Shown: positions 28,628 through 40,260, counted from the first letter of the stretch. The stretch is 64,000 nucleotides of DNA from Treponemataceae bacterium (GCA_963678065.2 CAXXVZ010000005.1:288001-352000), one strand, 5' to 3'. Made by a program: numbers and translations. The notes: generated by a model from the sequence alone, not told the origin.

Positions 28628-28768
28628 GGCCGGAGTTTCCGGTTTTCCATCCCACAATTACAGTCTTCTCCGAGTCCCCGGAACCTGCCCCGCCGTGCCG
28701 GAATGGCCCTGGGACCGATGGGCCGCGCGCGAAAGCCCGCGACCTCCCGTGTTTGGAAAGGAGAAATC

Positions 28769-30406
28769 ATGAACGAAACTATCTGCGGACTGCCGCCGCC
28801 GACAAACGCGACACCGCTCGCGTACGCGCCCGGAAGCCGCGAACGCGACTCGATCCGGGTCGAGCTTGACCGCGCCCTCGCCGCTTTGGTCGAAATTCCT
28901 GCCATCATCGGAGGAAAGGAAGTCTACACCGGCCGCATAAAACCGGTCCTCTGCCCCCACGACCGGACGAAGATCATCGCCCACTTCCATGAGGCGCGAC
29001 CGGAGGATGTCCGGGACGCGATCGAGGCCGCCTCGCGCGCGAAGGCCGAGTGGGAAGCCGTGGACTGGAGGGAACGCGCCGCGATATTCCGGCGCGCGGC
29101 CTCCCTCATCTGCGGCGAGCGTCGATTCGAACTGAACGCCGCGACGATGCTCGGCCAGTCGAAGAGCGTCTACCAGGCCGAGATCGACGCGGTCTGCGAG
29201 TCCGCCGACTTCTTCCGGCACTACGGCGGCTTCATGAAACGCATCTTCGAGGAACAGCCGGCGAGCCTTCCCGACGAGTGGAACCACCTCGAGTACAGGG
29301 CCCTCGAGGGCTTCATCTACGCGATTTCACCCTTCAATTTCACCGCCATCGGGGCGAACCTCGCCGCGGCTCCCGCCGTCATGGGGAACACCGTGATCTG
29401 GAAGCCTGCGACCGCCGCGGTCCTGTCGAACTACCTCCTCATGCGGATCTACCGCGAGGCGGGGCTGCCCGGGGGCGTGATCAACTTCCTCCCCGGCCAA
29501 GGCAGCGTCACGAGCGGAGGTCTCCTGCCCCACAGGGACTTCGCGGGACTCCACTTCACCGGCTCGAACCAGGTATTCGATTCCCTCCAGCGCGACATCG
29601 CCGCGGGGCTCGGGAACTACCGCAGCTATCCCCGCGTAGTGGGCGAAACCGGCGGAAAGGATTTCGCCCTCGTCCACCCTTCCGCCGACCCTGAGGTCGT
29701 CGTCGCACAGGCGATACGGGGGGCCTTCGAGTATCAGGGGCAGAAGTGCTCGGCCTTGTCGAGAATCTACATTCCCGCGTCGATGAAGGCATCGGTCCTC
29801 GACAGACTCGTCGAGGAGACCAGGACCATCAGGACCGGCGATGTCCGCGACTTCGGCGCATTCATGAACGCGGTGATCGACGGCGCGGCCTACGAATCGA
29901 TCATGGGCTACATCGAGCGGGCAAAAGCCTCGGCCTCATGCCGCATTCTCGCGGGAGGCAAGGGGGATTCCTCGGTCGGCTGGTTCATCGAGCCGACGAT
30001 CATCCTCGCGGAAGATCCCCGCGCGGAGTCGATGAGTTCGGAGATATTCGGCCCGGTCCTGACAGTGCACGTGTACGACGACAGCCGCGCGGAGGAGATC
30101 TTCGATCTGATCGATTCGACCTCGCCCTACGCGCTCACGGGAGCGTTCTTCGCGAGGGACAGGAAGGCGATCGAGCTGGCTCAGGCGAGACTCAGGAACG
30201 CCGCGGGGAATTTCTACATCAATGACAAACCGACGGGGGCCATCGTCGGGCGCCAGCCCTTCGGCGGCGCGCGGAGGTCGGGCAGCAACGATAAGTCGGG
30301 AGCTTCCCTGAACCTTCTGCGGTGGACGAGCCCGAGGGCGGTGAAGGAAAACTTTGCGCCGCTCCGTGAATGGCGCTATCCGTACATGAGGCCGGAAACC
30401 GACTGA
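28769..30406 (+). CDS. pruA: L-glutamate gamma-semialdehyde (P5C) dehydrogenase, monofunctional
   Basis: SPFNFTAI, FTGS, GETGGKDF, GQKCSA, EIFGP, NDKPTGA, QPFGG; AAGGAG RBS. Confidence 0.92.
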   Translation: MNETICGLPPPTNATPLAYAPGSRERDSIRVELDRALAALVEIPAIIGGKEVYTGRIKPVLCPHDRTKIIAHFHEARPEDVRDAIEAASRAKAEWEAVDWRERAAIFRRAASLICGERRFELNAATMLGQSKSVYQAEIDAVCESADFFRHYGGFMKRIFEEQPASLPDEWNHLEYRALEGFIYAISPFNFTAIGANLAAAPAVMGNTVIWKPATAAVLSNYLLMRIYREAGLPGGVINFLPGQGSVTSGGLLPHRDFAGLHFTGSNQVFDSLQRDIAAGLGNYRSYPRVVGETGGKDFALVHPSADPEVVVAQAIRGAFEYQGQKCSALSRIYIPASMKASVLDRLVEETRTIRTGDVRDFGAFMNAVIDGAAYESIMGYIERAKASASCRILAGGKGDSSVGWFIEPTIILAEDPRAESMSSEIFGPVLTVHVYDDSRAEEIFDLIDSTSPYALTGAFFARDRKAIELAQARLRNAAGNFYINDKPTGAIVGRQPFGGARRSGSNDKSGASLNLLRWTSPRAVKENFAPLREWRYPYMRPETD

Positions 30407-30527
30407 CCGGCCCGGGACGGCCGGACAGGACCGTGATGGGGCGGTGCCCGGACGGGGTGGTCGGGGCCGGAGGCAAAGGCTCTCCGGGCTCCGGCCCCGT
30501 TTTTCCTGGCAGTTCCCCTCCGCCGCG

Positions 30528-32360
30528 CTACTCGTCGTGCTCAGCCATGTAGTTCGCGGAGAGCGGAGAACGGAAGCGGAGGAAGAGTATCCCGACGATC
30601 GCGAGGTTGACGATGGAGGCCGCGGCGAAGCGGTTCCAGGCGGGAGATCCCGACGCGACCGAACCTACGTAGCTGTGGAGTTTGACACCTATCGTGTACA
30701 TCGAATCGTCGCCCAGGAACAGCAGCGGCACGAGAAACCCGTTCCAGGCCGCGAGAAAGGCTATCATCGCGGAGGTCGCGACGGCGGGCATGGCCAGCGG
30801 CAGGACGATCCGGAAAAACCGCGTGAACGCGGAAGCCCCCTCGAGCTCGGCCGCCTCTTCCAGTCCGGAAGGCAGCTTTTCCAGGAAGGCGGAGGTGGTA
30901 AAGAGGGAAAAAGGCGCGGCGTGGAAGAGATAGACGATCACGATGGGGATGTACGATTCGAGGAGCCCGAGGCTCCGGAACAGCACGTAGAGAGGGATGA
31001 GCGAGTGCATGCCGCCCGCCGCGCCGAGGGCCTGGATGCCCGCGAAAATTCCGGCCTTTCTGCCCGCGGAGAATGAGCGCAGCCTGAACGCGGCAGGGAG
31101 GACAAAGAAGGAAATGAGAAAGGCCGAGACCGCCGAGACGCCGAGGGTGTTGAGGAAGGCCCGGCCGAGGCCGTCTTCGGCGAAGATGAGGCGGAAATTG
31201 TCTGCCGTGAAAAACCTCGGAATCGCGGCATCGATGTAGGTCGAGGATAATCCGGAGAAGGAGAGCCAGAGCACCGCGTAGACCGCGAGGGCGCTCGAAA
31301 GAGCGACGAGTCCCGCGAGGGCGAGCCGGAAGGATTGCAGAACGAGGTCGCGAAAGCGGCCGGCCAGCGCAGACAGGGCCGCAGCCGGGAAGGCCCGCGG
31401 CGAAAGCCGGGACTTCGCCGGGCCCCCGATCGATCCGGACCGGGCCGAGCGCGCAAAGGCGAACCTCAGAGCGACGGCCGCAGCCACGATGCACAGGATG
31501 GCCGCCGCGAGGACGGCCGCGTAGGCGGCAGGGATGCCGTAATCGTCCGAAGCCCGGAAAAGATCGTACAGATAGACCTCGAGCGTCGTCGTCGCCCCGA
31601 CTACCGTGCGCCCGGTTATGCCGGACAAAAGGGGCGGCCCGCCCGCGGTGAGGAGAAAGGGGACGTTGAACTCCTTGAGCGCCTTCACGAAGCCGAGGGC
31701 GGCCACGGCGAGGAGGCTACCGGCCACCTGGGGGAAGTAGACCCGCGCCGAAAGGATCCCCGCGCCAGCCCCGTCGATGCGGGCAGCCTCTATCGTTCCC
31801 TTGGGAATCTTGCGCAGGGCCCCGTAGATGACGAAGACGGCCGCGGGCACGTTGAGCCAGGCGTCCACGAAGAGGGCCGCGGCGAAAGAGGCGGCCGGAT
31901 CGGTGAGAAGGTTCACGCGTATGCCGAAGAGGAAGTACAAGAGGGAATCACCCCCCGCTCCGTGGATGAGCATGCGCCAGACGGGCACGGCTATGAAGGC
32001 CGGCACGCCCCAGGGCACGAGGAGGATCGAATACAGGATTCTGAACCCTCGCCGGGCCTCGAAGAGGAGGGCCGCGAGGGAGTAGCCGAGCACGACGGAG
32101 AGGAGCGTGGAGGCGACCGACCAGGCGAGGGTGATTCCGGCCGACATGGCGAAGGCCCTGTCCCCGAGGATGTAGGAATAGTTGTCGAAGCCGGCGAAGC
32201 TGCGCTCGCCGAAGAAATCGTGGAAGAAGGAATCCTTGAGCGCCGAAAAAAACGGGAGGGCGCCCACGACCGCGAAGAGGAGGGCGAGGGGAACGAGCCC
32301 CCAGGCCGACCTGTTTTTTCTGCGCGTCACGGACAGCTTCTCCCGTTTCCCCTCCGACAC
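30528..32360 (-). CDS. Fused carbohydrate ABC permease (MalF-like plus MalG-like in one polypeptide)
   Basis: Two EAA loops (EAARIDGAG and EEAAELEGAS), FAGFDNY in the first half, AWNGFL in the second, joined by a basic linker. Confidence 0.88.
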   Translation of the reverse strand: MSEGKREKLSVTRRKNRSAWGLVPLALLFAVVGALPFFSALKDSFFHDFFGERSFAGFDNYSYILGDRAFAMSAGITLAWSVASTLLSVVLGYSLAALLFEARRGFRILYSILLVPWGVPAFIAVPVWRMLIHGAGGDSLLYFLFGIRVNLLTDPAASFAAALFVDAWLNVPAAVFVIYGALRKIPKGTIEAARIDGAGAGILSARVYFPQVAGSLLAVAALGFVKALKEFNVPFLLTAGGPPLLSGITGRTVVGATTTLEVYLYDLFRASDDYGIPAAYAAVLAAAILCIVAAAVALRFAFARSARSGSIGGPAKSRLSPRAFPAAALSALAGRFRDLVLQSFRLALAGLVALSSALAVYAVLWLSFSGLSSTYIDAAIPRFFTADNFRLIFAEDGLGRAFLNTLGVSAVSAFLISFFVLPAAFRLRSFSAGRKAGIFAGIQALGAAGGMHSLIPLYVLFRSLGLLESYIPIVIVYLFHAAPFSLFTTSAFLEKLPSGLEEAAELEGASAFTRFFRIVLPLAMPAVATSAMIAFLAAWNGFLVPLLFLGDDSMYTIGVKLHSYVGSVASGSPAWNRFAAASIVNLAIVGILFLRFRSPLSANYMAEHDE

Positions 32361-32407
32361 TCCCGGTCCGGCCCTCGTGTCTGCCGTCGGGCCGGAGCAG
32401 GAGTCGT

Positions 32408-33931
32408 TCAGAACTTCGCCTTGACGGACTTCAGCATCTTCACATTCTTGATGCCGGCGGGCACGAGGGCGGCGTTCTTGTCCCAGACCAGGGCGAGAGG
32501 GAACTCGTCCTCGCCGAGATTCGCGCCGTTCTTGTACATGGCGATGATGAGATCGTCGTTGTGGTCCATCTCTTTCGCGTTCAGCGTGACGGTGAATCCG
32601 TCCGCGGCGACGAAATCGACGGGATAGCCGGCGCGCGCGAGGGCGCTCTCGTAGGCGGGAATCGACTTGTCCTGCTTGTGCGGCGCGTTTTTCGGATCGT
32701 CGACATAGCCGAGGATGAGCCAGGCCGGGAAGCCCGTGTAGCTCGCGCTCACTCCTTTGCGCTCGAAGGTCACGGTCTTGCCGTGGCAGCTCACGCAGCT
32801 CTGGATCGTGGAGCGGTCGAGTTCGTGGCTCATCTTCCCCGAGAGGGAAATCCTGAAATCCTTGAAGTCCTTCTGCTTGACGACGATTTTCTTGACCATG
32901 CGCACGGAGAGGTGGCCGTCGATATTCGGATTGCCCGCTCCGACCTTGATCGTGCGCACGTAGCCGGGATCCTTGGGCAGGGCCTCGCCGTCCATCATAA
33001 AGGCGAGAAGCCAGGTTCCGTCCGCCTCGTCCATGACGAGGGAGCCGGGGTAGGTCATCTCGTAGCCGTCCATGGCGACGAAGGTCACGGAGTCCTTGTC
33101 CGAGAGCTTCGTGAAGCGCTCGACGAGTGCGCGCAGCTTGACGCCGCCGTACACATTCGTGTATTTCGTGCCGGCGCTCGTCGTGTAGCTGCCCTTCGCC
33201 TCCATGTAGAGCTCGGAGGAGCGCAGGTCGTCGAGGGAATACGAGGCCTTCGTCCCGTTTATGTCGAGGTCGACGGAGAAGGCTTCGGTCGCGGTCTTCG
33301 CGGGATCGGGGGCGAGGCTCGTCTCGATGGCGACGAGGTCGCGGACCCAGAGATTCTTGGGCGAGTCACCGACGGTCTGGGGAGCGCCCCATTTCCCGTT
33401 TTCCTCGGTGGCGAGGATGAGGGCGTCGGGGGCGAGATCCTTCGTCGAGAAGGTGGCCGTGTAGCCGTCCTTCGAGACGAGGGTTACATCGTAGCCGGCC
33501 TTCCATTTAGCCTCGTCGAAGGAGTAGGGGGCGGCCGAATCGGCTCCGTCGACCATCGCGATGATCCTGGACAGGGGGACGCCGCGGTACTCGAACTTCA
33601 CCCCTTTTTTCTCGACCTGCCGCTTCACGGCCCCTGCGTTGAAAAGCTTCTCGTAATACGAGGTCACGAGGCTGTCGGCCCGGAGGCCGAGAAGCTTGAT
33701 CGTCCAGCCCTCCGTTTCTCCGGACGCGGCGGAGACCGCGTCGGGCGTCGCCTGGGCGAAGGCCGCGGCCGGCACGAGGGCGAGCATGACGAGGGCCGCC
33801 AGGGCCGCCGCCGCTAGGCGAGCCGTCAGGCGAGTCGCGGGGCGCGCGGCACGGCTCAGGGAGCCGGGAACGGCCCGGCGCGGGGTGCTGCCCGACGAGC
33901 GGAGCGTTTTTTCCATCCTGATTCTTTCCAT
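32408..33931 (-). CDS. Secreted protein with three molybdopterin-oxidoreductase-like (Oxidored_molyb-type) repeats and one CxxCH
   Basis: AGGAGG RBS, signal ending AFA-QA, three repeats of YxG(V/F)..DG(Y/F)..(I/L)(L/I)A...(N/D)G..V(R/K); CVSCH in repeat 3. Confidence 0.7.
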   Translation of the reverse strand: MERIRMEKTLRSSGSTPRRAVPGSLSRAARPATRLTARLAAAALAALVMLALVPAAAFAQATPDAVSAASGETEGWTIKLLGLRADSLVTSYYEKLFNAGAVKRQVEKKGVKFEYRGVPLSRIIAMVDGADSAAPYSFDEAKWKAGYDVTLVSKDGYTATFSTKDLAPDALILATEENGKWGAPQTVGDSPKNLWVRDLVAIETSLAPDPAKTATEAFSVDLDINGTKASYSLDDLRSSELYMEAKGSYTTSAGTKYTNVYGGVKLRALVERFTKLSDKDSVTFVAMDGYEMTYPGSLVMDEADGTWLLAFMMDGEALPKDPGYVRTIKVGAGNPNIDGHLSVRMVKKIVVKQKDFKDFRISLSGKMSHELDRSTIQSCVSCHGKTVTFERKGVSASYTGFPAWLILGYVDDPKNAPHKQDKSIPAYESALARAGYPVDFVAADGFTVTLNAKEMDHNDDLIIAMYKNGANLGEDEFPLALVWDKNAALVPAGIKNVKMLKSVKAKF

Positions 33932-34037
33932 CGCTATTCCTCCTTGAAAATGTTGACCGACTTTTTCGCACACCGTGCCTGTGCGCTTCACGATTTACGC
34001 GCTCGCACCCGCGCGCGGGCTCTGTCCCTGCAGCCCC

Positions 34038-35648
34038 TTATTTCAGATTCTCCGCGATGAGCTTCGCGGCGGTTTTCTGCGTCGTCGCGACATCCATCTG
34101 CCCGGTGAGCAGAAAGCGCAAGAGCTTCCACATGACATTCTTGAAGGCGGCGTAGGATTCCGCGGGCGGAACGACAAGTCCCGTCTCGTAGCTGCGCATG
34201 AGTTGGGCGTAGTACTTGTTGTCGGTGCGGGCGGTTTCCATGGCCATGCGGCTCGCGGGCAGCTTGGAGAGCTTCGAGGTGAACGAGGCCTGAACGCCGG
34301 GCGATGTCATGTACTGGACGAGGCGGCGCGCGAGGACAGGCTTCGTCGTCCTGCGGCCGATGGCCAGTCCCTTGAAATCGAGGAGAGGCGCGAGAGCTTT
34401 GCCCGTCGCCGAAAGCACGGGATAGGGCGCGACACCGAAATCGATGCCGATCTTCGTGAACTCGGAAATGCTGTAGGAGCCCGACAGGATGAAGGCCGTC
34501 TTGCCCGAGGCAAACCAGGATATCATCGCGTCGCGCTCCGCCGGCTCGAGGAGGCCCCGCTTGTCGAGGTCGAGAAGGTAGGCGAGCGCCCTGGCCGTCG
34601 GCTCGTCGTCGACGGTGATCGATCCGTCAGGGTTCAGGATGGAGGGTTTGCCGAATCCCGCCATGAAGGGCAGGAGCCAGTAGGCCGAATACAGGTTCCA
34701 GGCCATGGGCGCCTTGAGGCCGGATCCGTCCGCCGCGCTGCTTGCGGCGATCTTCGTCGCCATGCGCTCCAGATCATCCGTCGTCCAGTCGTCGCGGACA
34801 GTCCCGCCTGTCAGTTTTTTGTTGTAGAACACGAGCTGGGCATCGAAATAGAAGGGTACGGCCCAGAATCTGCCCTCGTGGCGGAAAGCCTCGAAACCCT
34901 TGGGCACGAGGTCGTCGGTCCTGAGGTACTCCACCGACTGGATGACGCGCGCGGCGGCGAGGGCCGGGGCGTAGTCGGACTGGATCATGACGACGTCGGG
35001 GAGCGTGCCGCCGGCCCGCGCGACGGCGAGCAGCTTGGTCTGCGTGTTGGGAACATCCGTCACCCGCACGCTCAGCCCGTGCGAGGACGCAAAGCGGGCC
35101 ACTTCTTCCTTCAGCTCGGGCACGCCCTCCCAGGAAACCCATGCCTCGAGACTCTTCTCCGACAGGAGTTCGCCCGAGAGATCGACCCGCTCGACGGCCC
35201 GGAATCTCTCTGTCCCGACGACGAGGTCCCAGCCTCCCTTCGCCTCTGCGAGGTGGACCTCGAAAAGCCGCTCACCAAGGTCGTCGGATTCCCAGGCTTT
35301 TTTCCCCGTCGCGGAAGAGGCCTCGAGTCTCCAGACTTCGGCCATGAGGGGGCATATCTCGCCGAGCGCGACAGTTTTCTCGGGCGCAGGGGAAAGAAGG
35401 GAGGAGGCTGCGGCCGCACGCTGCTCGGGTTGCGCTGTGCGTTGCTCGGGTTGCGCCGCGTCCTGTCCCCGCGGCACGGCGAGGACGAGAGGACGGGCCA
35501 GGGATTTCAACTCCGCCGCGGTGACCGAGCGGATGATCTTTCCGCCCAGCCCGATGTCGAGGGCGCGAACGCCCGTCGGCAGAAAAAACAGGAAAAAGAT
35601 GATGCAGGCCTGAGCGCAGGCCGAGAGGAAGAGACTTCGCTCCCGCAC
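34038..35648 (-). CDS. MalE/CUT1-type substrate-binding protein with an extra N-terminal domain
   Basis: AAGGAGG RBS and GTG, signal peptide, then PDVVMI, WAVPFYFD..FYNK, FASGKTAFILSGSY, FGVAPYP. Confidence 0.85.
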   Translation of the reverse strand: MRERSLFLSACAQACIIFFLFFLPTGVRALDIGLGGKIIRSVTAAELKSLARPLVLAVPRGQDAAQPEQRTAQPEQRAAAASSLLSPAPEKTVALGEICPLMAEVWRLEASSATGKKAWESDDLGERLFEVHLAEAKGGWDLVVGTERFRAVERVDLSGELLSEKSLEAWVSWEGVPELKEEVARFASSHGLSVRVTDVPNTQTKLLAVARAGGTLPDVVMIQSDYAPALAAARVIQSVEYLRTDDLVPKGFEAFRHEGRFWAVPFYFDAQLVFYNKKLTGGTVRDDWTTDDLERMATKIAASSAADGSGLKAPMAWNLYSAYWLLPFMAGFGKPSILNPDGSITVDDEPTARALAYLLDLDKRGLLEPAERDAMISWFASGKTAFILSGSYSISEFTKIGIDFGVAPYPVLSATGKALAPLLDFKGLAIGRRTTKPVLARRLVQYMTSPGVQASFTSKLSKLPASRMAMETARTDNKYYAQLMRSYETGLVVPPAESYAAFKNVMWKLLRFLLTGQMDVATTQKTAAKLIAENLK

Positions 35649-35842
35649 GGGATCCTCCTTCTCAAGGGTGGAAGGCGCGGAGGTTTCCCCCGGCACCCGA
35701 TGGCTTCTCGTCCGTGGGCCGCCCTTTCAGGCGGCTGTTAGGTCCGGAAGCTCGAAGGATCGTATCGCTATTTTTATATCCGCAATCGCCTCGGGACCGC
35801 AAGTCCGCTCCCGCCTCACAGGCTGTCTGCGCTCTCCGGAAC

Positions 35843-37759
35843 TCAGTCCGCGGAATTCCCGATTTCTTCCTCGTCGCGCGGGGCGAAGTCTTCCAGCCAG
35901 CTTTTGGTCGCGGCTTCCGTCATGGGGCGGGCGTAGAGATAGCCCTGAATGTAGCGGGCCCCGTTCTCCAGGGCCCGTGACAGGATGCGCTTATCGCTCA
36001 CATGCTCCGCGACGATTTCGAGCCCCGACACTGAGCAGAAGGCCGCCATACCCCTGAGCAGGACAACGGCATCCTCGCGCTCCGCGGTCTCTTTCATGAT
36101 GGAGCCCGCGATCTTCACGGCGTCGAAGCCTGCCCCCAGAAGACTGGCATAGTTGGAGTACCCCGACCCGAAATCGTCGAGGTACACGAGACCTCCCGCC
36201 TCGTGCACAGAACGGATGAAGGTATCGACGCGCGAATGATCGCGGAATGTGTCATGCTCTGTGAGTTCCACGATGAGGCGCCCGGGCTTTCCCGCAGGTT
36301 TTTCCGGACGACCCGGGAGTTCTGTTCCTTCCGCTGTTCCGGAGAGCTCTCTGCAGCAGCGGCAGATCCGCTCGACGTATACGGGACGCTCGAGATCCTC
36401 GTACGTTATGTTGAAGCTCACCGGAAGCCCCGACTCCGAAGCCATAGCCCGGGCGCGGTCCAGGATGAACTCGGATATCCGCGGGCCGAGACCGAACTGC
36501 CGCGCCGCCGCAAGATATGGCTCCACCGATTCGAGGCCACTGGCCGTCCGCACGCGGGTCAGGGCCTCGATGAATCCCACACGGCTGGTGCGGGCATCCC
36601 AGACAGGCTGGAAAACCGCCTCGAAACCTCCCGAAGCCAAGGCTCTGAAAAGAACGGCCGCCCTGAGGGCGAGTTCCCCTCCCCCGTTGCCTTCGACCGG
36701 AGAATCGGAGAAAAACCACTTCCTTCCCGCGAAAAGACAATCCTCGAGGATGGAATAGGCCCCATCGAGGGCGAGGACCGCGTCCCCGCCCCGGCTGCGG
36801 AAGGCAGCGACGCAGGGGCAGAAGCGTGCCGGAGAGGATTCGAGGACACACTCGGTCTCGAAATGCTCCACGAGATTCCCGAGCAGCTCTCCGGCATCGG
36901 AGGAAGCGGGAAGCACAAAGACGAAATCCATATCCGAAATCCTGTACGGACCGCGCATCCCCCCGACACGGATACACTCTTTCAAAAGCCCGGAAACCCT
37001 GCGCGCCGCCTTTCCCGGCTCCATCGACAGCGCGATCTCCAGATCCCGGAGTGTCGCAAAGTGCATCAGGCAGAGTACATCCCCCGCGCCGATTTCGCCC
37101 CGCAGGAAGGCCGCCTGGTTCGGCAGCCCCGTCGTCTGGTCGATGTAGTGCCGGTCCAGGATGAAGCGGATCGACCTACCCTGCCGCCTTTCGTTCGCCT
37201 CCGCGATCTCGACCTGGAAAAGGATGGCTACCATCGCCATGCAGTAGGTCACGAGCGGAAATTCCATGTTCGCCCGGCCTATCCAGCCCGAATGACGTGC
37301 GAACCACAGAGACGTCACAAAAAGCGCGAGGCTCCCGCTCGCCCCGCGTCCCCAGCGCGAACCTCCGAGCAGGTAGGTGAAGGGCACGAAGCAGAAGAAA
37401 ATGACAATGTGGACGTTGCGCGAGCTTGGAAGGAAAAGCCCCGCAAAAATGCCTGCGAGGACAAAGGCGAGCACGAGGGATTGGGCCAGGACTGTCAGCC
37501 CTATCTTCCTGACAGTGAAGAAGATGGCAAAAATGGCGAGGAGGGCCGCCGCATAGCTCGCTGTGGCAGAAAAATCACCTTTTATACAGTCCGTGATGAA
37601 AAACGAGATCGGGAAAAGACTCGATACCGAGAGAGAGACGAGGGCCACTCTGAGAGAATCGCTTTTGTTGGACTCACGGATGCGTCCGAAAGCCGCCTCC
37701 GTGAGGAAATCGTGCTCGGGAATAGCCGCTTCCAGGTTTTCGGAAGAGTCTTTTTGCAT
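35843..37759 (-). CDS. Membrane-anchored EAL-domain c-di-GMP phosphodiesterase with degenerate GGDEF-like domain
   Basis: About 5 TM segments, DQTTGLPN, FQP..EALTR, ELTE, LDDFGSGYS, AEHV, QGYL. Confidence 0.88.
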   Translation of the reverse strand: MQKDSSENLEAAIPEHDFLTEAAFGRIRESNKSDSLRVALVSLSVSSLFPISFFITDCIKGDFSATASYAAALLAIFAIFFTVRKIGLTVLAQSLVLAFVLAGIFAGLFLPSSRNVHIVIFFCFVPFTYLLGGSRWGRGASGSLALFVTSLWFARHSGWIGRANMEFPLVTYCMAMVAILFQVEIAEANERRQGRSIRFILDRHYIDQTTGLPNQAAFLRGEIGAGDVLCLMHFATLRDLEIALSMEPGKAARRVSGLLKECIRVGGMRGPYRISDMDFVFVLPASSDAGELLGNLVEHFETECVLESSPARFCPCVAAFRSRGGDAVLALDGAYSILEDCLFAGRKWFFSDSPVEGNGGGELALRAAVLFRALASGGFEAVFQPVWDARTSRVGFIEALTRVRTASGLESVEPYLAAARQFGLGPRISEFILDRARAMASESGLPVSFNITYEDLERPVYVERICRCCRELSGTAEGTELPGRPEKPAGKPGRLIVELTEHDTFRDHSRVDTFIRSVHEAGGLVYLDDFGSGYSNYASLLGAGFDAVKIAGSIMKETAEREDAVVLLRGMAAFCSVSGLEIVAEHVSDKRILSRALENGARYIQGYLYARPMTEAATKSWLEDFAPRDEEEIGNSAD

Positions 37760-37872: not shown

Positions 37873-40086
37873 TCAATAATCGGCAATCATCGCGATGAAT
37901 GCCTCCCCGACGCGGGGATCGAAATGTTTTCCGATCTGCGACTTGATGTGCTCGAGAGTCTTTTCGCGCGTCCAGGCCGCGCGGTATGGCCTGTCGCTGG
38001 TGAGCGCGTCCCACACATCGACGATGGCGAAAATCCTGGCCGCCATCGGTATGGCCTCACCGGCGAGCCCCTTGGGGTATCCCGACCCGTCCCACTTCTC
38101 GTGGTGGCCGTAGGGAATCTCGAGGGCGGGCCTGAGGTAGGCGACCGGAGAGAGCATCCCGACCGCAAAATCGGGATGGCGTTTCATGATGGCCCACTCC
38201 TCCTCGGTGAGGGGACCGGGCTTGAGAAGAACCGAATCGGGCACACCGACCTTTCCGATATCGTGGAGCAGTGCCCCGCGCTTCAGGTGCACGAGGGCTT
38301 CGCCCTCGATTCCCAGCTTCCGCGCGAGCGCCAGAGCGAGTTCGGTGACACGCCGCGAGTGGCCCTCGGTGTCCTTGTCCCGGAGGTCCATCGCGCGCGA
38401 CCAGCCCTCGATCGTGGCGTCGTAGGCCACGGCGAGCTCTTCCCGCGCCTTCTGTTCGTTGTGGTACATTGTCTTGTTGTCGATGGCGATGGCGGCCTGC
38501 CGGGCTATCGTCTCGAAGAATCCGAGCCATTCCGGCCCCGAGGACAAGGCAGTCCGCGGATAGATACCCATGGCCCCGAGCAGCTTGGACTGCACGATGA
38601 GGGGAGTACTGTGACACGCCGTGAACCCTTCGTCGCGGAGCAGCCTGGCAAAACCGGAATCGGGATCCAGATCGGAAAAATCGGAGACGCTCACGGTTTT
38701 CCGCTCCGATGCGGCGATGCCGATATATGGCTGACCCAGCGCGACGCGTTCGCCCGGCGGGCTCTTTGTGCGGAAACCCTTCGAGACGGCCAGACGCAGA
38801 TAGTCGCCGTCTTCGTCGAGAAGAAAGATGGATGCGGCGTCGGCCCGCAGAAGAGCCATCGCCTGGTCCAGAATGAGACCGAGGGTCGCGCCGAGGTCCA
38901 CAGCACCGCTTATCGACTCGTCGATGAGGGAAAGAGCTGTCAGCTTGCGCAGGCGATCCTCGGTCTCCTCCCGAAGTTCCGCGAGATGGAGGGCATTGGC
39001 GACGATGCGGGCGACGAGGAGGAGTATGTCGAGCTCGTCTGGCTCGGGCTCCGCCTTCCTGTTCACGACTATGTCCCCGAGATACCGGTTGTGGGCGTCG
39101 AGGGGGAGCCTGATCTGGATCGGCCCGGAACTGCCATCAGGAGAATGGTCCGAAGCGGGGAGGTCGACGATCCCGCCGGCCTTGGCCCGCGTGTCGTCGA
39201 ACCGCGCCGATTCGGTTCCATCCAGCTCTTCCAGCAGGGCGAGCGTGCCGGACAGTATTCCGTCCCGGCTCCGGTTATCGCGGAGGACGGCGCTGATTTT
39301 TACTTCCATTTCGAGCTCCCGCTCGGAAATGCTGCTCTCCGTGATGTCGCGGATGTAGCCTCCGATCATGGTCTCGTCGCCCATGACGATGGGGAATTTT
39401 CTGGATTCGAAGATGCGTCCGCGAAGCCTCTCGATATCCGTGACGATGCCTGAGCCGGCGAGGACGGCCTTGTCGCCCTGCGCACACTGCGCGGCCAAGG
39501 CAGCCGGCAGGAGATCGGTCACCATCCTGCCGAGTATTTCCGGCTCGGGCCTGCGGTAGTAGTTCTCCGCGGCCTTGTTTATCATGACGAAGCGGCCGGA
39601 ATGATCCTTTATGAAGACGACATCCAGATTCGCGTCCGCGAAGGCCCGGTACTTGGCCTCGCTCGCCCTGAGAGCCGCTTCGGCCTCCCGCGCTTCCTGC
39701 TTGCGCCGTCGCGCCTCGAGAGCATGCCGCACGGCCCGTCCGACGCGGGAAAGGTTGTCCTTGGAGACGTAATCGTAGGCACCGCGGCGGAGGACATCGA
39801 TGGCGGCTTCCTCGCCGATCTTGCCGGATACGATGATGAAAGGAAGATCGAGGGACTTTTCGTTCAGCAGCCCGAGAGCCTCGAGCCCTCCGAATCCGGG
39901 AAGAGACCAGTCCGAGAGGATGATGTCGGGCAGAGGGAGGTTTTTCAGGGCTTCAAGGTAATCGCTGCGGTTGTCGACCCTCCGGTGGACAGGGCTGAAT
40001 CCTTCTTCTTCCAGGCGCATGAGGAGGAGCTCCGCGTCGTCCGGACTATCTTCGACGATCAGAAGTCTGAGCGGAGTTCCCTGCAT
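37873..40086 (-). CDS. Response regulator with REC-PAS-GAF-HD-GYP architecture
   Basis: LLIVEDS, SDWSLP, PAS, GAF, LLHDIGK, HHEKWDGSGYP. Start could instead be TTG at 40113. Confidence 0.92.
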   Translation of the reverse strand: MQGTPLRLLIVEDSPDDAELLLMRLEEEGFSPVHRRVDNRSDYLEALKNLPLPDIILSDWSLPGFGGLEALGLLNEKSLDLPFIIVSGKIGEEAAIDVLRRGAYDYVSKDNLSRVGRAVRHALEARRRKQEAREAEAALRASEAKYRAFADANLDVVFIKDHSGRFVMINKAAENYYRRPEPEILGRMVTDLLPAALAAQCAQGDKAVLAGSGIVTDIERLRGRIFESRKFPIVMGDETMIGGYIRDITESSISERELEMEVKISAVLRDNRSRDGILSGTLALLEELDGTESARFDDTRAKAGGIVDLPASDHSPDGSSGPIQIRLPLDAHNRYLGDIVVNRKAEPEPDELDILLLVARIVANALHLAELREETEDRLRKLTALSLIDESISGAVDLGATLGLILDQAMALLRADAASIFLLDEDGDYLRLAVSKGFRTKSPPGERVALGQPYIGIAASERKTVSVSDFSDLDPDSGFARLLRDEGFTACHSTPLIVQSKLLGAMGIYPRTALSSGPEWLGFFETIARQAAIAIDNKTMYHNEQKAREELAVAYDATIEGWSRAMDLRDKDTEGHSRRVTELALALARKLGIEGEALVHLKRGALLHDIGKVGVPDSVLLKPGPLTEEEWAIMKRHPDFAVGMLSPVAYLRPALEIPYGHHEKWDGSGYPKGLAGEAIPMAARIFAIVDVWDALTSDRPYRAAWTREKTLEHIKSQIGKHFDPRVGEAFIAMIADY

Positions 40087-40260
40087 CCCGGCCCGATTCC
40101 CGACATCGGCCAACAGTTCCCCCTTGGCTATGAGTAATTTGAGTATCGCGCAGACAGGACATGAATGCAATGTTATTTGCAATTGCCGGACGCAAAAACA
40201 CCCTTGCATTCCCTCCGGTTTGGTTTACACTTTATCCATATTGCAGGGAAGGAGAAACGG

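Follow-up and report, generated by a model that had tools for sequence, protein, structure and literature searches.

We focus here on three consecutive minus-strand genes from a Treponemataceae bacterium, contained in a 64,000-nucleotide window of its genome (GCA_963678065.2 CAXXVZ010000005.1:288001-352000; "the window" denotes this whole stretch). They encode a substrate-binding protein, a secreted three-domain protein termed MID and a fused permease of the ATP-binding cassette (ABC) type, and they lie behind a riboswitch of the molybdenum/tungsten cofactor (Moco/Wco) class (Table 1). The window has a G+C content of about 64%, and among its overlapping open reading frames (ORFs) it is the high third-position G+C that picks out the three genes. 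The initial annotation had described three co-oriented genes, for a binder with an extra N-terminal domain, a secreted protein and a fused permease, and all of these are present. Its statement that the unit contains neither an ATPase nor a glycosidase is also borne out, both here and in 67 related loci. It had further listed no regulator, which has to be corrected, as an RF01055 Moco/Wco riboswitch leads directly into the first gene. A promoter and terminator scan of positions 30300-36000 gave nothing useful.

Table 1. Features of the transporter unit and of its surroundings, in positions of the window.
Feature	Position	Strand	Basis or remark
Moco/Wco riboswitch aptamer, P3-less type	35639..35770	(-)	Rfam RF01055
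Substrate-binding protein, 536 aa from GTG 35648	34038..35648	(-)	Pfam, AF2, Foldseek
Binding protein, extra N-terminal domain, after Sec signal peptide	35157-35561	(-)	
Binding protein, MalE-fold core	34041-35156	(-)	
MID, secreted three-domain protein	32408..33931, frame open from 33991	(-)	Start per database protein P0001
MID D1	33314-33706	(-)	
MID D2, SUOX/PruR-like pterin-binding fold	32861-33301	(-)	
MID D3	32411-32857	(-)	
Fused MalF-MalG-type ABC permease, 610 aa	30528..32360	(-)	Pfam, NCBIfam
Second Moco/Wco riboswitch	28656..28779	(+)	Rfam RF01055, 64.4 bits
L-glutamate gamma-semialdehyde (P5C) dehydrogenase, convergent, downstream of unit	28769-30406	(+)	TIGR01236
EAL protein, directly upstream of unit, same strand	35843-37759	(-)	
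Response regulator with PAS, GAF and HD-GYP, upstream of unit	37873-40209	(-)	

In a scan of the window with Rfam, the riboswitch reaches 46 bits (gathering score 36), and it reaches 102.7 bits with R1, a covariance model built from ten riboswitch copies. It ends at GTG 35648, a codon in frame with the binding-protein ORF that the initial annotation had taken as the start. Aligned to the Rfam model, the window copy lacks the third hairpin (model positions 58-72), and none of the ten copies in our alignment A4 carries an insertion at the expected site; judged by its position, the deleted hairpin is taken to be the P3 of Regulski et al. 2008. The minimum-free-energy fold recovers P1, P2 and P4. 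Across 55 aligned homologues, 90.8% of cells are paired and compensatory changes occur in 17 of 23 pairs, a level matched by none of 500 shuffles, with no slid register coming close. The Shine-Dalgarno sequence GGAGGA sits in the 3' strand of P1, as it does in the predicted fold, with the GTG start next to it, and thus a ligand-stabilized P1 would hide the ribosome-binding site. We infer from this anatomy that the riboswitch acts as an off-switch. The Rfam scan places it directly before the binding-protein gene in eight of eight loci, and model R1 recovers it from 55 of the 56 loci whose sequence includes the 5' region (the miss is L040), those of three metagenome-assembled genomes (MAGs) of Thermotogota included; 11 further related loci start inside the unit and are thus without a 5' region.

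In the available text of Regulski et al. 2008 (PMC2408646), P3-less Moco RNAs are almost confined to organisms and genes of tungsten-cofactor metabolism. The same text places Moco RNAs commonly before mod, tup and wtp transporters, and also before genes of cofactor-using enzymes. In Syntrophomonas wolfei, two P3-less Moco RNAs precede genes for a "putative sulphite oxidase", which the authors treat as exceptions; these genes may instead belong to a related salvage system in Firmicutes and encode its cysteine-less capture proteins.

The riboswitch and the three genes travel together. A search with MID gave 173 proteins at E ≤0.001 among 8000 candidates scored, and the named relatives come from Spirochaetota MAGs, where they are annotated as "molybdopterin-dependent oxidoreductase". 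Loci were surveyed by scanning one genome per species, with gene content determined by tblastn with the window proteins. This gave 67 related loci, 64 in Spirochaetota records and three in Thermotogota records. The initial annotation had left it as a matter for checking whether the trio is conserved elsewhere, and all three genes are indeed found together in 59 of the 67, in the order binder, MID and permease on one strand in 58 of them; L042 is the exception, its permease gene being upstream and on the other strand. The contig ends within the unit in the remaining eight loci. The co-occurrence of the three genes is far beyond chance, and together with the riboswitch they make up a conserved unit. 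This unit is self-contained, and across the 67 loci no conservation extends to its flanks; neither a glycosidase nor a sugar regulator is conserved beside it. ABC_tran genes that neighbour 16 loci (cluster c3) were considered as the ATPase of the unit and rejected, as they lie on the opposite strand beside CbiQ-type genes and belong to an unrelated energy-coupling factor system.

The transporter components are of the sugar type in their fold. The binding protein matches SBP_bac_8 (88.5 bits) and SBP_bac_1 (75.4 bits) of Pfam over ORF residues 194-483, and about 135 mature residues precede this fold. In NCBIfam, it matches MalE (best, and far below its cut-off) and GanS alone, and neither NCBIfam nor fold comparison gives a match to ModA, TupA or WtpA. 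The AlphaFold2 (AF2) model is of high quality (predicted local distance difference test score, pLDDT, 94.5; predicted template-modelling score, pTM, 0.92), and its core aligns with Thermotoga maritima MalE (6dts) at a Foldseek TM of 0.86 and 23% identity. All 52 aligned homologues keep the packed N-terminal domain, which hhalign relates to D2 of MID in a weak match that is suggestive at most (probability 46%, E 3.3e-5). The permease contains two BPD_transp_1 stretches (Pfam), which NCBIfam assigns to MalF (residues 54-300) and GlcU/MalG (residues 392-594), all below curated cut-offs; matches to ModB and WtpB also stay below threshold, with 33-60 bits where the cut-offs are 183-340. Related loci have the fused form too, with 47 ORFs of at least 560 aa. 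Three candidates for a MalK-type ATPase are encoded elsewhere in the genome.

Oxidored_molyb (PF00174) matches MID at 57.7 bits against a cut-off of 24, at ORF residues 269-378 and thus in D2 only, and MID is the sole protein in the genome with such a match. Its AF2 model, built from a 68-sequence alignment, has a pLDDT of 90.4 and shows three domains in 440 mature residues (D1 at model residues 9-139, D2 at 144-290 and D3 at 292-440). D2 aligns with chicken sulfite oxidase (3hbg) at Z 15.5, with a root-mean-square deviation of 2.6 Å over 141 residues at 25% identity (VIA-align; 25-26% over the 141 aligned residues), with SorA (2blf) at Z 15.2, and with the pterin-binding protein PruR at Z 14.1-15.4 over 7kp2 (15.4), 7kom, 7kos and 7rkb (14.1, with neopterin). 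D1 and D3 match solved folds weakly (Z about 4.5, to beta-grasp-like domains). Profile comparison with hhalign relates D1 to D3 at 99.7%, D1 to D2 at 88.8% and D3 to D2 at 93% probability. The three repeats that the initial annotation had seen are thus real, and the Oxidored_molyb-like fold expected of the middle protein is there in D2; of the repeats to which a sulfite-oxidase-like fold had been ascribed as a whole, D2 alone gives a clear match to it, D1 and D3 being related to D2 by profile.

D2 is also the most conserved part of MID. A long hairpin of this domain (model residues 175-198) bears a near-invariant YTTSAGT at its tip, and the motifs D-G-Y, G-x-x-R and G-H are invariant. Cysteine is absent from D2 in the window protein and in 44 of 45 homologues, the single exception having a Cys at a non-conserved place. 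The whole-protein profile A2 found no match among Protein Data Bank sequences at E 0.01, and the sequence match of D2 to PruR is weak (E 0.17). The seven matches found in a search for single-domain relatives of D2 are all fragments of the three-domain protein. In D3, the motif QSCVSCH contains a near-invariant Cys-His pair that opens a conserved helix, with a conserved DD and P-H-x-Q close by, and the pair may serve as a metal or cofactor ligand. A c-type haem site at CVSCH was considered and rejected, as the first Cys is Gly in about 10 of 24 aligned homologues and the Cys-His pair alone is near-invariant; cytochrome c assembly genes occur in 23 of 27 carriers of the unit and do not discriminate.

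MID-type domains also occur outside the unit: a library-wide profile search gave 882 representative clusters at E ≤0.001. Among them are giant proteins of 1100-3100 aa (P0138, P0140, P0160, P0168, P0174, P0179 and P0191) with four to nine MID-related repeats, joined to SLH, PKD, Big_2, CARDB, CBM96 or NosD modules, an unexplored surface-protein family built from sulfite-oxidase-like domains.

The export route of MID bears on its function. In periplasmic members of the SUOX family, the cofactor is inserted in the cytoplasm and the protein is exported folded via the twin-arginine translocation (TAT) route. Of 55 MID homologues, 33 have a lipobox and one has a strict S/T-R-R-x-F-L motif, with the rest being of Sec type. 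Since the Sec/lipoprotein route exports proteins unfolded, a cofactor made in the cytoplasm cannot leave with MID, and since D2 is without cysteine, MID cannot ligate the metal as SUOX enzymes do. For these two reasons, MID is read as a binding protein rather than an enzyme.

The distribution of the unit links it to the AOR family of tungsten enzymes. In a sample of 201 genomes of the window's order searched with the MID profile, there are 28 carriers, the window genome included (a partial match in G143, with E 3e-4 and 20 bits over about 100 positions, was not counted). All 27 other carriers have AFOR_N, the mark of the AOR family, and the window genome has eight AFOR_N matches, so that AOR is found in 28/28 carriers as against 83/201 genomes over the whole sample. 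When the sample is divided further by MoaC, an enzyme of cofactor synthesis, genomes with both AOR and MoaC comprise 11 carriers and 48 non-carriers, and those with AOR and no MoaC comprise 17 carriers and seven non-carriers; no carrier is found among the 25 genomes with MoaC alone or the 93 with neither. MoaC occurs in ten of the 27 other carriers, the same ten having MoeA, and 17 of the 28 carriers are without both. MoaA is found in none of the five high-quality MoaC-less carriers, all of which retain RF01055: in G035 and G047, the sole copy is the one before the transporter unit, and the other three have extra copies before glutamate-semialdehyde dehydrogenase and before operons of a YdhY-like iron-sulfur protein and AOR. 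The unit is thus found only in AOR-containing genomes and is enriched in those without MoaC, MoeA and MoaA, which is the co-occurrence that the initial annotation had singled out for checking. Similar patterns are seen within genera, with the unit in 4/4 MoaC-less genomes against 4/11 with MoaC in genus g30, and in 3/3 against 0/1 in genus g49. Outside the order, three Thermotogota MAGs and one Salinispira MAG with the unit have AOR and no MoaC; the Marispirochaeta isolate has both.

The seven genomes with AOR but with neither MoaC nor the unit are apparent exceptions, and they dissolve. Four of them have MoeA, and thus probably the pathway. In G165, the riboswitch and, behind it, the 5' end of the binding-protein gene lie at a contig edge, so that this genome counts as a carrier, and in G025 and G107 the riboswitch lies before a TupA-like tungstate binder. 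The window genome itself has a TupA-like tungstate binder (C4:612272-613009) in one cluster with MoeA and MoaC (G000:C4:608261-613009), beside which there is no RF01055 match.

Taken together, a cofactor switch, an extracytoplasmic pterin fold, an importer and an AOR-linked distribution concur, and we thus consider it probable that the unit is a riboswitch-repressed ABC importer that salvages the pterin cofactor of tungsten or molybdenum in ready-made form, or a close precursor of it. In such a system, plentiful cellular cofactor would occupy the aptamer and thereby shut P1 over the ribosome-binding site, so that the importer would be made only when the cofactor is scarce. Exported MID would capture free or protein-released cofactor outside the cytoplasm and, because the metal-ligand cysteine is missing, would hold it reversibly. 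It would then hand the cofactor to the binding protein, which would dock on the permease, with import powered by a MalK/MsmK-type ATPase encoded elsewhere, and the imported cofactor would serve the AOR-family tungsten enzymes. The metal-loaded cofactor is likelier to be the cargo than cyclic pyranopterin monophosphate or bare molybdopterin, because genomes without MoaA, MoaC and MoeA cannot insert the metal themselves. In the window genome, salvage would supplement synthesis, given its tupA-moeA-moaC cluster. Whether many anaerobic spirochaetes and some Thermotogota are tungsten-cofactor auxotrophs that have lost moaA, moaC and moeA but retain AOR-type tungsten enzymes and a Wco-sensing riboswitch, and that import the metal-loaded cofactor of their neighbours with MID, a lipoprotein with a tripled, cysteine-less sulfite-oxidase fold, as the capture protein, we regard as evenly balanced. 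The initial annotation had proposed an uptake system in which a Moco-fold protein either captures a pterin or Mo/W cofactor or redox-modifies the substrate, for example by oxidizing a sugar derivative. The first part is supported by the riboswitch, the cysteine-less SUOX/PruR fold and the AOR-restricted distribution, whereas the second is not, as there is no catalytic cysteine, export is by the Sec/lipoprotein route and no sugar genes accompany the unit.

Several observations weigh against cofactor salvage or limit its reach. Eleven of the 28 carriers, the window genome included, have both MoaC and MoeA, and salvage is thus not obligatory in them. As no more than about 2 kb separates moaC from moeA, one assembly gap can drop both, and most of the genomes are MAGs; the absence calls for the cofactor pathway rest mostly on these, and closed genomes are needed. 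The Fisher p value of 1.6e-5 overstates the association, as related genomes are not independent. MoaE (PF02391) is not found in the window genome, which is 99.9% complete, and is found in two of 32 and five of 48 relatives elsewhere, although many of these have MoaC, MoeA and AOR genes, so that either absence calls made with Pfam can mislead for the Moco pathway or this order has an unusual form of it. Maltodextrin binders are the nearest matches of the binding protein, at 20-23% identity, and the sequence similarity of D2 to solved SUOX proteins is weak (E 0.056 for SorA and 0.037 for sulfite oxidase). Free Moco is very labile. As the fold also occurs in giant SLH/PKD/Big_2 surface proteins, it may be a general extracellular module whose ligand is not fixed by the fold. 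Finally, a riboswitch alone is no proof of cofactor transport, as Moco RNAs also precede genes of cofactor-using enzymes (PMC2408646, in the text available).

MoaE was for its part set aside as a pathway marker, since it is rarely detected in the order whatever the carrier status and is thus uninformative. Its rarity suggests that molybdopterin synthase is very divergent in this order, or that the pathway is incomplete more widely than MoaC indicates.

There are four other ways to read the unit, each of which is contradicted by at least two observations. MID could be a periplasmic oxidoreductase that uses the cofactor, with the ABC system importing its substrate or product, such as an oxidized sugar, and the riboswitch tuning the enzyme. 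The Pfam match above cut-off, the identity of D2 to chicken sulfite oxidase and the near-invariant Cys-His pair in D3 would all fit an enzyme, as would the Moco RNAs before cofactor-using enzymes, the P3-less ones of S. wolfei among them (PMC2408646, text available). We nevertheless consider this unlikely, as D2 lacks cysteine in nearly all homologues, the Sec/lipoprotein route offers no way out for a cofactor made in the cytoplasm, and 17 carriers are without MoaC and MoeA. Furthermore, a Shine-Dalgarno sequence within P1 would make the cofactor turn the operon off, which is the wrong direction for a cofactor user, and no sugar-metabolism genes are conserved nearby. Import of tungstate or molybdate by the unit, in which MID would be an accessory binder of the oxyanion or metal, would agree with the position of Moco RNAs before mod, tup and wtp transporters (as given in the accessible part of PMC2408646), with the same riboswitch class before the TupA-like gene of G025 and G107, and with the ModB/WtpB matches of the permease. 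These matches are so far below cut-off as to reflect general permease similarity, however, and the binder has a MalE fold and no match to ModA, TupA or WtpA; a TupA homologue next to moeA and moaC is already present in the window genome, and the 17 carriers that lack MoaC and MoeA would have no use for an oxyanion, which makes this reading quite unlikely.

A pterin other than molybdopterin, such as monapterin, neopterin or a folate precursor, could also be taken up or sensed in the manner of PruR, possibly feeding cyclic di-GMP (c-di-GMP) signalling. PruR structures are among the best fold matches of D2, and an EAL protein and an HD-GYP response regulator lie directly upstream on the same strand. 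We looked for a link to these genes along the lines of the model of PruR and its partner DcpA, and rejected it, as EAL, GGDEF and HD-GYP genes are not conserved as neighbours across the 67 loci. The riboswitch is of the Moco/Wco class and not of a folate or other pterin class, the unit associates with AOR enzymes and with moa/moe loss, and D2 has a long hairpin as against the truncated hairpin and short pocket of PruR (PMC11194511, text available), so that this reading is very unlikely. The least probable, and to our mind a highly improbable one, is that the unit is an ordinary CUT1 importer of a sugar or oligosaccharide, joined by an accessory lipoprotein, and that both its riboswitch and its phyletic pattern are coincidences. 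The MalE-fold binder and MalF/MalG-like permease are what such an importer would have, and sharing of an ATPase is typical of CUT1 systems; yet coincidence would have to account for a riboswitch in 55 of 56 loci in two phyla and for the strict restriction to AOR-containing genomes, and there is no conserved glycosidase or sugar regulator.

The proposed cofactor salvage has its closest counterpart in the salvage of vitamin B12, in which BtuFCD-type ABC importers lie behind a B12 riboswitch and, in some bacteria, accessory surface lipoproteins capture B12. By analogy, a cofactor riboswitch would here repress an ABC importer of the same cofactor and an extra exported lipoprotein would capture the cargo, and in both cases the system occurs in auxotrophs and in producers. 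The present unit differs in its riboswitch class (RF01055), in its type I, CUT1-like importer with a MalE-fold binder, a fused MalFG and no ATPase gene, and in its proposed cargo, a Mo/W pterin cofactor that is without a described bacterial importer. With MalEFGK2 and other CUT1 systems it shares the MalE-fold binder, the MalF/MalG-like membrane domains and, probably, a shared ATPase. The sugar cargo of CUT1 importers is usually shown by neighbouring glycosidase or sugar-regulator genes. The unit has no sugar genes, and differs as well in the extra domain of the binder, the fused permease, the SUOX-fold partner and the Moco/Wco riboswitch. From ModABC, TupABC and WtpABC it is set apart by a binder that is not of the ModA, TupA or WtpA family.

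In terms of MID, the comparison is with PruR and with SUOX molybdoenzymes. As described in the available text of PMC11194511, PruR (7kou, 7kom, 7kp2 and 7rkb), from Agrobacterium tumefaciens and other Proteobacteria, is a periplasmic protein that binds pterins at the Moco-equivalent site without a Mo-ligand cysteine; its hairpin is truncated, and the pterin is sandwiched by Asn-x-Tyr and Trp. MID likewise has an exported SUOX fold without this cysteine (D2 and PruR aligning at Z 14-15) and likewise carries the annotation "molybdopterin-dependent oxidoreductase", although PruR is not an enzyme. PruR is a single domain of about 170 aa, paired for signalling with the cyclase-phosphodiesterase DcpA, whereas MID has three domains and the long hairpin in D2, its gene is part of an ABC transporter operon headed by a Moco/Wco riboswitch, and no c-di-GMP partner is conserved beside it. 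SUOX molybdoenzymes (1sox/3hbg, SorA 2blf and YedY/MsrP 1xdq) share the Moco-domain fold of D2 and PF00174 above its cut-off. MID differs from them in having no metal-ligand Cys, no dimerization or haem domain, Sec/lipoprotein export and a tripled fold. MID thus lacks the defining features of SUOX enzymes (the cysteine and a TAT signal) and of PruR (a single domain and a DcpA partner).

The Mo/W cofactor is generally held to be too labile for sharing. The available part of PMC9026282 calls its uptake impossible in most organisms, and a 2026 review, in the text at hand, gives the passage of pterins across membranes as unknown (PMC13259868). In the literature covered, PMC13144720 included and subscription journals and supplements outside it, we found no bacterial importer of Moco, Wco or molybdopterin. 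The one case of uptake that came up is that of nematodes (C. elegans and Haemonchus), which take up dietary Moco, according to the accessible reports. They are similar in using Moco enzymes with a cofactor obtained from outside; the animals are without an identified transporter in these reports, whereas the present case would be a bacterial system with named parts. If such tungsten-cofactor auxotrophs exist, this would be the first bacterial Moco/Wco transporter, and anoxic communities would be trading the cofactor as a "vitamin". An importer of this kind, gated by a riboswitch and with its parts named, would allow a direct test of cofactor exchange in anaerobic communities, and it would explain how AOR-bearing genomes without moa/moe genes function. 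It would also put right the labels "molybdopterin-dependent oxidoreductase" and "sugar ABC transporter" that automatic annotation assigns, and the capture protein and the binder would provide a handle for stabilizing or delivering the cofactor.

The second riboswitch in the window, also with its Shine-Dalgarno sequence in P1, precedes the P5C dehydrogenase gene (TIGR01236, 752 bits against a cut-off of 613.6). This pairing recurs in three MoaC-less genomes (L080, L082 and L084), and it belongs to the same regulon, outside the transporter unit. By analogy with B12-independent isozymes behind B12 riboswitches, the dehydrogenase may be a cofactor-independent enzyme made when the tungsten cofactor is short; a riboswitch before a cofactor-independent aldehyde dehydrogenase suggests a cofactor-sparing switch.

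Short contigs (150-260 nt, 97-100% identity) from three lake-water metatranscriptome libraries of one study match pieces of all three genes of the unit, and one covers 35513-35745, across the junction of riboswitch and gene. They give neither level nor strand, and DNA carry-over is possible, so that they are no proof of expression.

Further copies of the riboswitch were seen elsewhere. The third RF01055 copy of the genome (G000:C3:1074233-1074390, minus strand) lies upstream of an AOR-family gene. The Salinispira MAG has a second copy on the strand opposite to the unit, some 3 kb downstream of it (L058:11213-11330, minus strand). In G099 and G065 (loci L081 and L083), the riboswitch is followed by a gene for a YdhY-like ferredoxin with a twin-arginine signal (RRDFLK) and then by an AOR gene, an arrangement that suggests an exported AOR complex under cofactor control.

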